IMG/VR virus record: IMGVR_UViG_3300006735_000025
Coordinates: 1-64,000 of that record
DNA length: 64,000 nt
Origin: a virus
Reading direction: 5' to 3' (one strand)
Position numbers and translations under genes: made by a program. The notes below the pieces were generated by a model, which saw nothing but the letters and a program-made list of their open reading frames with translations, had not been told where the DNA came from and searched no databases. Below are positions 60,082-63,097 of the stretch, piece by piece. Positions within the stretch are counted from its first letter, which is position 1. Each line of letters starts with the position of its first letter.

Positions 60082-60942
60082 TTAACTATCAATCTTAGAT
60101 ATTATAATCTTATTTTTTTCTCCTTGTGATGTGTCATAAATAAAAAATTCTACCCCAGGATATTCTACAGATAATTCTTTTTTAATATAATCCATAACAG
60201 CATCTATATTTTTTCTATCATCATCACTAAAACCAATACTAAGTTTATCGTACTCACCGTTGGTTAATTTTTGAGCTCCATTAACAACTTTTTCTACATA
60301 ATCTTTTAAAGCTATTTTTTTACCCTCTTCTGGACTATCAGCGTCTGAATCTAAACCAAATTTATCTTTAAATTCTGGAGACGATACCGGCGAATAGTCG
60401 TTTTGGGATAGGTAAAAGTCTATTTTTTCCTCCATATTCATTTCACTTGTGGATGGATAAACTTTTTCTATATTTTCTAACATATTTTTAACTTCGTTAG
60501 GTTCAAAAGTCATACCAATTAACAATCTTACACCTTCTTTTATTGCTGCTGGGGGTGTACCTCTAGCTGTAATAATAGAAAATGGGTTAGCATACATTAT
60601 TGACTCTTTAAATTTTTCAAAACTAGGTGCAAACTTTTCTTCTTCTATAGCCTTTCTAACATCTGTTATAAAAGTTTGTGGGTTAGCAAAATCCATAAAA
60701 GCGTGGTCTGTCAATCTATAATCACTATCATTTCTTACATCAGCAAAATCTTCAGTACTCACATTAACCGGTATCCAATCTAATCCGTCTTTTTTTTCCA
60801 TCTTAATTTCAGTAGGCATAAAAAGTATATTATCGTCCCAATCAAAAGAATAACCACGTATTTTTTCTGTAGTCATTACTTCACCTATCTCTTTAACTAA
60901 TTTTGTTAATTGTCTTTCTGTAAGAATTAAACTTCTTTTCAT
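60082..60942 (-). CDS. HAD-superfamily phosphatase-like protein with an N-terminal LTERQL leader
   Basis: HAD motif I FDWDDN, motif II ITARG, motif III K (EGKK), motif IV GFSDDD. Confidence 0.7.
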   Translation of the reverse strand: MKRSLILTERQLTKLVKEIGEVMTTEKIRGYSFDWDDNILFMPTEIKMEKKDGLDWIPVNVSTEDFADVRNDSDYRLTDHAFMDFANPQTFITDVRKAIEEEKFAPSFEKFKESIMYANPFSIITARGTPPAAIKEGVRLLIGMTFEPNEVKNMLENIEKVYPSTSEMNMEEKIDFYLSQNDYSPVSSPEFKDKFGLDSDADSPEEGKKIALKDYVEKVVNGAQKLTNGEYDKLSIGFSDDDRKNIDAVMDYIKKELSVEYPGVEFFIYDTSQGEKNKIIISKIDS

Positions 60943-60968
60943 ATACTATAAATATTAAGTTATTAAAT

Positions 60969-60998
60969 AAAAAAAACCCCACATTTCTGTAGGGTTTT
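60969..60998 (-). terminator. Intrinsic terminator with a GAAA tetraloop
   Basis: Minus strand AAAACCCTACA-GAAA-TGTGGGGTTTT followed by further Ts. Confidence 0.88.
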
Positions 60999-61025
60999 AT
61001 AATTCAGTATATTTAATTTATTGTT

Positions 61026-61973
61026 TTAACAAGGACAAGGACCCCATGGACCTCCATTACATGAACACTCATGAAGTAAATTATCAATCCATGCGATAAG
61101 TTTTTTCCACCAACTACGTTTCTTCGCTGTATTTATTTCGTCTATAGTAGTTCTACTTAAATTACCAGCAGACATTTCTTGACCTGCTTTTCTAATTAAT
61201 GCTATAGCTTCCGAAGCCCATGGTATTTCTCTCCCTGTCGGCTCCTTAGCTATATCAGCTTCAAAAGCGGCAAGTTCTTCACTAGCACCCATTATCTTCG
61301 CACCCATTCTCTTTTGTTCATCTGGAGTCATCATCATACCAGAAGGTCTATCGGATTTCATATCAACATCAAATTCCATTTCTTCATTACCTCTAGCCAT
61401 TGGGTCGTCAGAACCACCACCTTGACTCATACCCCCAAAACCACCAAAATCATCAAATGGATTATCTGGAAATGTACCACCTGGGTTTCCTAGTCTATCA
61501 ATATCAAATGGTTCATATAATTTTTCGTTTATGACTCTTTTAATAACATTTGTTAAATCAGATTCTTTTAATCTAATAGATTTTCTTTTAGTTGGCTTAA
61601 TTTCTTCGAAAGCAACATCAATCATTCCATAGTCTACCGTTTTATACCCATTAGAATGTGTTTTTACGGCTTTCTTTGGTGCGTGTTCAGCAAGAACACC
61701 TCTATATGTACCACCACCAAATCTAGCTTTGTTTTTATATTCAAATTCGTAAATAGGTATACCTGATGGTGATTTACCAACTTTTTTAATATTTTTCTTT
61801 AATCTTCCATCAGAAGCCGCACCTATAGTTGTAATAATATCAATTATTGCTTTTACAAACCATTTACGTCTTTTTTTATCTTTTTTCTCCTCAAATATAT
61901 TAGTTTTAGCGTTAGCTATTCGTCTAACAATTTTAGTTAAATCAGATTCTTTTAATTTTATCGTTCTTGCCAT
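61026..61973 (-). CDS. Mosaic protein: two LKESDL leaders, an internal peptidase S74 (auto-cleaving chaperone) domain, and two cationic amphipathic segments
   Basis: SDGRLKKNI...GIPIYEFEYK...GVLAE...GYKTVDY is the S74 signature with its Ser and Lys(+5). LKESDLT occurs at aa 7 and again at about aa 135. Confidence 0.7.
   Translation of the reverse strand: MARTIKLKESDLTKIVRRIANAKTNIFEEKKDKKRRKWFVKAIIDIITTIGAASDGRLKKNIKKVGKSPSGIPIYEFEYKNKARFGGGTYRGVLAEHAPKKAVKTHSNGYKTVDYGMIDVAFEEIKPTKRKSIRLKESDLTNVIKRVINEKLYEPFDIDRLGNPGGTFPDNPFDDFGGFGGMSQGGGSDDPMARGNEEMEFDVDMKSDRPSGMMMTPDEQKRMGAKIMGASEELAAFEADIAKEPTGREIPWASEAIALIRKAGQEMSAGNLSRTTIDEINTAKKRSWWKKLIAWIDNLLHECSCNGGPWGPCPC
61552..61956. repeat. Exact 21-bp direct repeat encoding the LKESDLT leader core (copies at 61552-61572 and 61936-61956)
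   Basis: gttaaatcagattcttttaat occurs twice within the gene. Confidence 0.9.
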
Positions 61974-62032
61974 TTTTAAATAATTTTTTATTTTATTGTT
62001 ATTCTATAAATATAAATACTTTATATAAAGTA

Positions 62033-63097
62033 TTATAACCTACCTGGGTTATATTCTCTCCCAGTTTTATTTACCCTATTAAACCATTTTTTCATATCTT
62101 TAATTTCTGATTCTGTAATAGGATTTGTTGTTTTTAAAGTTCTATTTTCAGTTGTTATATTACCTTGTGTTGGTGGTGTTCCCTTACAAGGTACTTTTGT
62201 ACTAGATTTAGGACATCTTCCATTAACAGCGGAAGTAATGACACCATTTCTGTCTCTACAACACATTTTTTTAACTGGTGATGTTTGAGGTTTAAGTGGT
62301 GATTCTTGAGGTTTGTTATCTCTCATTCCTTCATTTGCTAATTGTTCTAATTCTCTCCAAGAATTTGGCATTTTTCCAGACTCTCTTTTAAGTTGTTCTA
62401 ATTTACCACTATATTGAGACTTAAACTCGGCCCATTCTTTAGGGTCATTATCACCATCATCACCAGGAACTACCTTCTGGTCTCTCCATTCTTTCCAGGA
62501 TACCCATACTTTCCAAAGTTGGATGGCTAAAAGCCACCATTCAGTTAAGAGTTGTTTATTTTCATTTAAAGGTTTTTTAGTTGCTGCTTTTTTAACATCC
62601 TTCATTAACTTCATAGCAAAATCAGTTTTTGCTTTTAGTTGTTTTTTCCATTTTGGTCCGGCCTTCATGGTTTTTTTCTTCCAACCATCAACTTTACCTT
62701 TTAAGAATCTTTCAGCTCCTTTAATATTTTTATTTTTTAAAAAAGTATCTACTTTTTTCTTAAATCCTGGTGACCAGGTAGACATATTAAAATTTGGTGC
62801 TGGAGGATTTGTTGGTCCTGTTCCTGTTGTAGGTTTTGGTTTACCCTTTTTCGCCTTATACTTTTTAAGAAAAGCTTTTTTATCCGCAAGATACTTAGGG
62901 TCTTGACCTCCCTTTTTATAGTCTTTAGGGTTAGGGGCACCAGGTGTGTTAACATTTTGTTCACTTATAATCCCAAGTAACCTTTGTAATTGTGTTTCAG
63001 TAATTCTAACTTTTTGTTTTTTATTTTTAGTAAAAGTTTTTTTGTTACTTCTAGGTAACCCTATTTCTTCAGTAAGGTTTCTTTTTTTAAATTTCAT
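62033..63097 (-). CDS. Basic mosaic protein with several [IL]-x-E leader motifs, a Trp-rich segment and a 4-Cys module
   Basis: VRITETQLQRLLGIISEQ, PLNENKQLLTE, PITESEI; a Lys-rich region; WWLLAIQLWKVWVSWKEW; CCRD...CP...C. Confidence 0.6.
   Translation of the reverse strand: MKFKKRNLTEEIGLPRSNKKTFTKNKKQKVRITETQLQRLLGIISEQNVNTPGAPNPKDYKKGGQDPKYLADKKAFLKKYKAKKGKPKPTTGTGPTNPPAPNFNMSTWSPGFKKKVDTFLKNKNIKGAERFLKGKVDGWKKKTMKAGPKWKKQLKAKTDFAMKLMKDVKKAATKKPLNENKQLLTEWWLLAIQLWKVWVSWKEWRDQKVVPGDDGDNDPKEWAEFKSQYSGKLEQLKRESGKMPNSWRELEQLANEGMRDNKPQESPLKPQTSPVKKMCCRDRNGVITSAVNGRCPKSSTKVPCKGTPPTQGNITTENRTLKTTNPITESEIKDMKKWFNRVNKTGREYNPGRL

Follow-up and report, generated by a model that had tools for sequence, protein, structure and literature searches.

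A common leader on diverse packaged proteins is already known, from bacteriophage T4. In T-even phages the internal proteins are diverse and have as their sole common part a capsid-targeting sequence (CTS), by which they are bound to the scaffolding core; the propeptides are subsequently taken off by gp21 (PMC3012670, PMC5694885). In the giant phages phiKZ, 201phi2-1 and SPN3US a protease related to gp21 processes the propeptides of head and ejection proteins, cutting after [S/A/G]-x-E (PMC5694885). In this work we analyzed a window of 64,000 nucleotides, i.e., the first 64 kb of the 74,239-bp IMG/VR virus contig IMGVR_UViG_3300006735_000025, in which three genes lying between those for the tail sheath and the tail tube (hereafter C, B and A) share a peptide motif, hereafter referred to as the tag. 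The contig has a CheckV completeness of 23% and is therefore a fragment of the genome of a jumbo phage, uncultured and T4-like. The best-supported statement that we can make is that this portable strand-plus-helix tag is put on late accessory proteins by a lineage of jumbo T4-like phages that is widespread and uncultured. What is different here with respect to T4 is the longer, two-box motif and its internal and C-terminal use, a stand-alone 47-residue module (mini-C, corresponding to the N-terminal part of C) coupled to a HAD phosphatase conserved in the sheath-tube gap, and the combination with what looks like self-processing through an S74 domain.

The contig has a guanine-plus-cytosine content of ~32% and holds nearly all of its large open reading frames (ORFs) on the minus strand, where the genes follow each other in the order sheath, C, B, A, tube, a gp26/hub-like protein and a tape-measure-like protein of 729 aa. 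The strict pattern [ILV]x[LIV][TK]Ex[DQE][LI]xx[ILV][ILV] has exactly four matches in the six-frame ORFs of the whole contig, beginning at residue 5 of A (MKRSLILTERQLTKLVKEIGEVMT, 60871..60942, on the minus strand, as are all the window features given below), at residues 5 and 133 of B (MARTIKLKESDLTKIVRRIANAKT, 61902..61973, and KRKSIRLKESDLTNVIKRVINEKL, 61518..61589) and at residue 30 of C (KKQKVRITETQLQRLLGIISEQNV, 62951..63022), and each of the four copies is preceded by basic residues. Residue shuffling of the 49-gene proteome yielded on average 0.009 matches (maximum 1) versus the four observed, which upholds the starting point of the sequence-only reading of this DNA, that is, that a motif is common to the three genes between sheath and tube. 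A hidden Markov model (HMM) built from the four copies has these same copies as its sole matches in the genome. Two further proposals of that reading are not confirmed: neither the presumed shorter versions of the motif at 36830, 45239 and 45471 nor the peptide PITESEI of C, which lies in a separate C-terminal module of the C family, are matched by the HMM even at E<=10. The strict pattern was composed after the copies had been seen, and the independent check on it is its conservation in relatives.

Using the tube protein as a query, more than 598 related viral contigs were retrieved, 80 of which were kept for the comparison of the locus. When the iterated HMM was run over the ~875,000 six-frame residues of these 80 loci, it gave 45 matches at E<=0.01, all 45 of them on the coding strand and inside the sheath-tube gap (or directly upstream of the tube gene where the sheath lies off the locus), although they are not independent of one another, the position of a gene being inherited along with the gene itself. 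The motif copies vary in their codons and in several residues, and selection, or conservation, therefore acts on the peptide. A DNA-level repeat or an RNA element was also considered as a candidate and rejected, as codons differ, every match reads in frame on the coding strand, and internal copies exist (two of them). A full-text literature search for the motif strings returned no relevant paper. The idea that sheath and tube genes are usually adjacent does not apply to this lineage, in which a homologue of A stands between them in 70 of the 80 loci and, in the clade devoid of A, a more divergent HAD protein adjoins the tube gene. The gap, which ranges from 317 to 6755 nt across the 80 loci (L002-L081), is a hypervariable insertion hot spot; in some relatives it also harbors additional HAD proteins of small size, an enzyme like DeoC and a number of orphan genes.

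The tag spans ~20 residues: its lead-in is basic, and after it come a short hydrophobic stretch, beta-like and closing in an invariant hydrophobic-x-Glu (h-x-E) box, and a helix. The latter is N-capped and amphipathic, of the form x-[QD]-L-x-x-h-h-x-[KR]-h, and often closes in a second h-x-E. The glutamate at position 9 (E9) is invariant in 24 of 24 aligned copies, with I, L or V at position -2; it is the sole invariant residue of the tag and falls at residues 7-10 of the protein in the N-terminal copies, a distance that roughly equals the T4 CTS in length. The existence of a second box closing the motif, which had been read from the window itself, is confirmed by the C family, where its glutamate occupies a fixed column in 44 of 80 representatives.

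The T4 CTS (MKTYQEFIAE; IPI-III, Alt) is the closest parallel. Both are short N-terminal amphipathic peptides on unrelated, fast-evolving accessory proteins, starting with M-K and showing hydrophobic-x-Glu at about residues 7-10, and the lineage possesses a T4-type protease, scaffold and gp23; moreover, the E9 box fits the gp21 site [L/I]-x-E, by sequence consistency alone. The tag differs from the CTS in being about twice as long, in having a second h-x-E box, and in its additional occurrence at internal positions, at C-termini and by itself as a protein of 47 aa, with the genes of the window embedded in the tail module; there is no detectable sequence relation between the two peptides. The giant-phage propeptides have in common with the tag a Glu at the cleavage site, the site in the tag being putative; in the giant phages many head-internal proteins are processed in this way, with multiple sites per propeptide and paralogues sharing N-terminal residues (PMC5694885). 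However, they are long, have no single portable motif and carry a small residue (A, S or G) at P3, where the tag has I, L or V.

The portability of the tag was analyzed in G001, a relative represented by a 297,623-bp record that is 93% complete and was examined over its whole length. A relaxed form of the pattern occurs within the first 15 residues of five G001 proteins versus 0.05 expected from shuffling, and a sixth protein would be N-terminally tagged if an evident internal Met were its true start; internal matches are three versus 0.46 expected. The number rises, with the weaker HMM matches, to about nine proteins, unrelated and dispersed through the genome, that start with M-[KR]-x-x-h-x-L-[TKN]-E-x-[EDQ]-L-x-x-h-h. 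The tagged proteins include an AAA_33 (Pnk-like) kinase and the HAD analogue adjoining the tube gene, and most of the others have no known family. These data agree with the notion, put forward from the window alone, of a portable tag on unrelated proteins, and the N-termini of G001 proteins do carry the motif far more often than those of shuffled proteomes. An extreme N-terminal position is a feature of A and of the first copy of B; it is not shared by the second copy of B (residue 133), by C (residue 30), by the stand-alone mini-C or by the C-terminal copies.

Concerning the expression of these genes, the sequence TATTTAT is found on the coding strand within 60 nt upstream of 16 of 50 contig genes (0.9 expected) and of 70 of 301 G001 genes (5.1 expected). 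The genes so marked include sheath, tube and tape measure in both genomes, the scaffold and protease genes of G001, and A and B in the window, where the motif lies at 60948..60954 upstream of A, with similar copies at 62006-62018, upstream of B, and at 60016-60022 and 60054-60060, upstream of the tube gene. Probably TATTTAT, which is the reverse complement of the T4 TATAAATA core, is the late promoter or a late regulatory element of the lineage. It precedes 7 of the 11 tagged genes of G001 versus 63 of the 290 others (Fisher p 0.004), and from its enrichment on both tagged and virion genes we infer that the tagged proteins are late proteins, made alongside the virion parts. Two of the tagged G001 genes (270394-270987 and 280396-280809) are also preceded by ~45 nearly identical nucleotides with two TATTTAT copies, possibly a duplicated promoter cassette.

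On the whole, the reading that we tentatively prefer, with somewhat less than even confidence, is that the tag is a sorting or docking label for virion incorporation, similar to the T4 CTS, whose destination may be the head core or the tail. The lineage attaches the tag to late, fast-evolving and otherwise unrelated proteins, mostly at the N-terminus and at times internally or C-terminally; according to this idea, the tag would lead all of them to one assembly partner and, in this way, into the virion structure, and the T4-type prohead protease of the lineage might then trim them at the h-x-E boxes, which is the weakest step of the model. B might additionally process itself via its S74 domain. 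Protein equipment that could serve such a pathway is encoded by G001, which has a prohead protease of T4 type (PF03420, E 1.5e-26), a gp23-type capsid protein (E 1.3e-63) with a candidate capsid maturation site predicted at residue 60 (LINE|A), and an acidic scaffold-like ORF of 493 aa.

Several observations weigh against this reading. The 74-kb contig, which is 23% complete, is without a protease or a capsid gene, both being present in G001. In more than 20 loci a stand-alone mini-C of 45-49 aa closes directly after the motif, with no cargo behind it; in locus L106 a 782-aa protein with membrane-like segments, encoded between sheath and A, has the module as its C-terminal end; and B-like proteins of relatives close in the motif. 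The conservation of the tag runs 12 residues past the first h-x-E, unlike that of the T4 CTS, and the motif HMM matches neither the capsid propeptide nor the scaffold of G001. Moreover, [IL]xE is enriched 1.7-fold in the first 30 residues of G001 proteins, whose N-termini are rich in I, L and K, and composition alone yields ~1.4-fold. In favor of the reading, the C family retains the second h-x-E box in 38 of its 52 long forms versus 6 of 28 stand-alone short forms (the commonest tripeptide being INE), although this contrast mostly tracks two clades and reflects few independent events. The polyprotein look of B, for its part, is better explained by a self-cleaving S74 domain, with no need of the prohead protease. 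The original proposal of leaders cut from their cargo by that enzyme is therefore only in part sustained: h-x-E sites exist, as do protease, gp23 and scaffold in G001, and the cargo-less, internal and C-terminal copies do not fit it. In the same way, scanning the genome and its relatives with a leader HMM did reveal many unrelated tagged proteins, and the similarity to a capsid propeptide or scaffold that had been expected did not emerge.

The cargo-less copies belong to the family of gene C (62033..63097, 354 aa), which starts 9 nt past the sheath stop, so that its co-transcription with the sheath gene is probable. The protein consists of the conserved N-terminal mini-C module (residues 1-47, 62957..63097), a hypervariable Lys-, Trp- and Cys-rich middle, in keeping with the earlier reading of what follows the leaders, and a conserved C-terminal module (...LKTTNPITESEIKDMKKWFNRVNKTGREYNP..., 62036..62155, including PITESEI) that recurs at the C-terminus of many C-family representatives; other long forms close in different conserved peptides. 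No Pfam or PHROG family was found for C or for 28 mini-C members, and an ESM Atlas look-up of C gave no usable match. The module, as delimited by alignment and by a whole-library profile search, retrieves 100 representative clusters (50% identity) among 1.84 billion proteins and has three conserved glutamates, each two residues past a hydrophobic one (L8/E10, I32/E34 and I44/E46). It occupies residues 1-47 in nearly all 100 clusters and the C-terminal end of proteins of 688-782 aa in four. Family members measure 45 to 517 aa in total, the module being followed by a tail of 0 to ~470 residues, and the best-conserved motif copy is often that of a stand-alone protein of 45-49 aa. Two repeat proteins with 'IITEEQLL'/'ITESQISDL' strands (P0044 and P0089) were discarded from the family as chance look-alikes.

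The gene to which mini-C is coupled in relatives is A (60082..60942, 286 aa), its product being composed of the N-terminal tag and a HAD phosphatase core (~residues 26-282). The residues of all four HAD motifs (D34, D36, D37, T125, K208 and D240-D242) are invariant in 49 homologues, motif I reading D34-W-D36-D37-N38, with N where the HAD consensus has T/V. The AlphaFold2 (AF2) model of A is of good quality (pLDDT 86, pTM 0.81) and, in a structure comparison performed with VIA-align, its top match is the T4 Pnkp 3'-phosphatase (5uj0_B, Z 10.2, root-mean-square deviation 3.2 A over 131 residues), followed by T4 Pnk (1ltq_A, Z 9.6), Pnkp1 (4xrp_A, Z 9.3) and then mostly by HAD hydrolases; a Foldseek search of the model against the PDB returned nothing at E<=0.001, and no Pfam family matched A at E<=0.1. 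Judging from the model and the catalytic residues, A is a phosphatase of the HAD superfamily with a fold nearest to the T4 Pnkp 3'-phosphatase, as the HAD assignment of the sequence-only reading had anticipated. The two enzymes share the HAD catalytic motifs and differ in that their identity is ~11-12%, in that A has a large cap insertion and the N at position +4 of motif I, and in that A is a separate tagged protein devoid of a kinase domain and encoded between sheath and tube. The tagged Pnk-like AAA_33 kinase of G001 is located at 15538-16227 (L090:15538-16224:-), and it may be that the two activities of T4 Pnkp are split, in this lineage, between two separately tagged late proteins, an AAA_33 kinase and a HAD phosphatase. 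In a tblastn search of A against 50,697 phage records the matches were five huge phages, all of them uncultured; a cultured relative with A or the tag, for which virion proteomics might exist, was not among them. These homologues (33-37% identity) belong to phages of 630-735 kb (LR756501-LR756504 and LR745206), and none was found in the cultured phages of the collection. As for the tag itself, residues 1-25 have a pLDDT of 46-62, with a helix predicted at 9-18 that does not pack against the enzyme core, and in the model the tag is a flexible appendage outside the enzyme fold.

The organization of mini-C and A leads to the alternative that survives best, although we judge it possible rather than probable, namely that the motif is a docking or oligomerization helix without any role in packaging or proteolysis. 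As a strand-plus-helix element it would pair with another copy of itself or with a partner helix and thus join tagged proteins into complexes, for example mini-C and A, or it would form a trimeric coiled-coil stalk in B. The stop codon of mini-C lies within -8 to +9 nt of the ATG of A in 22 of 23 loci, overlapping it in 16, and translational coupling is therefore implied; the stop of the 782-aa protein of L106, which ends in the module, overlaps the start of A as well. In addition, a long N-extension of A, which is helical, is present in every mini-C locus (32 long, 0 short), versus 4 long and 24 short where mini-C is missing. This association is, however, confounded by phylogeny: on the tree of A it reduces to 3-4 independent pairs (p 0.5), and we therefore treat the link between mini-C and the N-extension as a lead and not as evidence. 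A docking helix would account for the stand-alone, internal and C-terminal copies, and it does better than a virion label on those without cargo. On the other hand, it leaves unexplained both the extreme N-terminal tags on many unrelated small late proteins across a 297-kb genome and the retention of the terminal h-x-E mainly where a tail follows. Were a docking helix all that is involved, the interest of the finding would be local, and a conserved HAD phosphatase coupled to a 47-residue protein would still need explaining.

Further information on this point comes from B (61026..61973, 315 aa), whose architecture was deduced from the family alignment and an AF2 model. The first motif is followed by a long helix with a Trp-containing hydrophobic stretch, the Peptidase_S74 intramolecular-chaperone domain (residues 54-125, 61599..61814), the second motif, a disordered linker (Gly/Met/acidic), a helical part and, lastly, a Trp-helix that carries a Cys-rich tail. 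About 25 full-length relatives were found. The first motif is kept in most of the 22 family members aligned, and the second one is degenerate or absent in the distant ones; in other proteins of relatives the motif sits deep within sequences that are long, charged and of low complexity and have Cys-rich ends, a layout much like that of B. The S74 copy of the window scores 19.7 bits against PF13884, under the cut-off of 22. Nevertheless, 21 of the 22 aligned members match PF13884 (best E 5.8e-12) and PHROG 6121 is matched with E 4e-13, which substantiates the S74 domain of the earlier reading. S54, D55, R57, L58 and K59 are invariant in the 22 sequences (SD[GS]RLKKNI), with Ser and Lys five apart at the start of the domain, and the Trp-containing hydrophobic helix precedes S74 in all of them. 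Searches of PDB sequences with the S74 region of B and with the B-family profile gave nothing relevant, and tblastn of B against the 50,697 phage records matched the S74 domain and nothing else.

The AF2 model of B is poor (pLDDT 51). In it the first motif opens a single continuous helix (residues 9-54) running into S74, a point for the docking helix, S74 domains being known to fold trimeric stalks; the second motif forms a helix (137-151), disorder extends over residues 152-216, and helix returns in the C-terminal part. At this low confidence a contact between the two motif copies cannot be read from the model. S74 and Hint domains are self-cleaving modules, and among the 22 aligned relatives of B four have a second, C-terminal S74 domain and one has a Hint (Vint) domain (P0104, P0105, P0114, P0117 and P0116, in which the added S74 or Hint domain stands in each case after a Trp-rich helix). 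Hence the modular look of B, for which prohead-protease cleavage had been proposed, finds a sufficient explanation in its own intact S74 domain, and B looks, from its sequence, like a modular, probably trimeric and self-processing protein. It resembles the Peptidase_S74 proteins (endosialidase, tail fibres, and MYRF with its ICA domain) in the PF13884 match, the Ser...Lys pair and the preceding long helix. In phage fibres S74 is C-terminal, whereas in B it is internal and near the N-terminus, with ~53 residues upstream and 190 downstream out of 315. MYRF-type S74 (ICA) domains are known at an internal position.

B also figures in a further alternative, which we regard as unlikely, in which the tag is a tail-cargo label that directs loading into the tube lumen or the baseplate hub, B and C being membrane-active ejection proteins. 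A comparable strategy is that of the extracellular contractile injection systems (eCIS; PVC, Afp), where payloads that are unrelated carry a transferable N-terminal region guiding them into a particle with a contractile tail; the eCIS signals differ from the tag in consisting of ~50 disordered residues without such a common motif and in operating in phage-like particles rather than in phages. Hundreds of relatives have these genes placed, within the tail module, directly between sheath and tube, B and C bear Trp-rich amphipathic helices and Cys-rich ends, and S74 is typical of trimeric tail fibres and spikes. B also matches the C-terminal ends of PHROGs annotated as 'virion structural protein' and 'DNA ejection protein', but these matches cover the S74 domain alone. 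The position of the genes is a weak guide too, given that it is inherited with them and that the 45 matches in the gap do not represent 45 independent observations; moreover, the tagged genes of G001 are scattered across the genome, and we know of no precedent in true phages for a tag-directed loading of the tail lumen.

Similarly doubtful is a more ambitious reading, in which mini-C, encoded right after the sheath, is a universal adaptor that pairs through the strand-helix motif with tagged clients and tethers them in the tail or head for delivery. The clients would be the Pnkp-like phosphatase, the kinase, Trp-rich membrane-active peptides released by S74 self-cleavage, and other late proteins. 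If it were true, it would mean tag-and-adaptor cargo loading in a true phage, and the proteins injected by uncultured jumbo phages would become predictable from sequence.

Slightly less credible still is the idea that the tagged proteins have no function in common, the motif arising incidentally where gene birth or shuffling takes up a 5' cassette (promoter, start and first codons) again, together with an AT-rich bias of N-terminal helices towards Lys, Ile, Leu and Glu. The stretch of ~45 nt, including the promoter-like motif, upstream of two tagged G001 genes would be in agreement with it, as would the richness of G001 N-termini in I, L and K and the recurrence of other N-terminal helix classes. 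Yet the internal (second copy of B, and C) and C-terminal copies cannot derive from a 5' cassette, the DNA differs between copies while the residue pattern is kept, composition-keeping shuffles give 0.009 and 0.05 matches versus 4 and 5 observed, and the module is conserved over 100 clusters at 50% identity. Finally, the tag might correspond to the strand and helix that open a fold of ribbon-helix-helix type dimerizing on DNA or RNA, of which basic-h-x-h-x-L-[ST]-E-x-x-L-x-x-L is the usual look and for which mini-C is suitably small and basic, but this is very improbable, as a second helix is not evident after most copies, no such Pfam family is among the matches of the 28 mini-C members at E<=1, and the tag is present on enzymes and on acidic low-complexity proteins.

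If the tag is indeed a virion address label, then the accessory proteins that these phages carry into the next host, including the Pnkp-like phosphatase and the kinase, could be listed from sequence, and the T4 capsid-targeting idea would be extended by a longer two-box tag, by its internal and C-terminal use and by a small module that is possibly an adaptor. The lineage concerned is a widespread one of uncultured aquatic jumbo phages, counting the related contigs mentioned above, and homologues of A reach into the huge phages of 630-735 kb. One could also try to use the tag as a handle with which foreign proteins are loaded into phage particles.

As regards the flanking genes, the 3' part of the tail sheath gene occupies 63107..64000 and continues past the window (PHROG 23, E 1e-46; Pfam Phage_sheath_1C, E 3e-7), and the tail tube gene lies at 59496-59984 (PHROG 4542, E 5e-31; Pfam Phage_T4_gp19). 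The sheath is distantly T4-like, its nearest database relatives being an uncultured 484-kb phage, a Microcystis phage and Flavobacterium phages (37-44% identity). The whole protein (contig positions 63107-67225, minus strand) measures 1372 aa versus 1068-1135 aa in relatives and is about twice as long as T4 gp18, the extra length presumably deriving from inserted surface domains. Between B and A there is a terminator-like hairpin followed by a T-run (60973..60998).

The small ORF at window positions 36621-36848 likely starts at the ATG 36830 (MKNLIKKILREE...) and not at the upstream GTG 36848, and the N-terminus so defined is akin to the second half of the tag alone. In crude pattern counts, other classes of N-terminal helix recur on unrelated proteins (...EEIFRIKSMMGINE, ...NEEEKNRIRGLH... 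and ...KRIIREFxEE...), which suggests that several tag families exist in the lineage; the proteins bearing them include L007 5590-6075, L013 5204-5677, L012 5437-6243 and L106 5822-8170 and, in G001, those encoded at 294200-294601 and 17523-18398.

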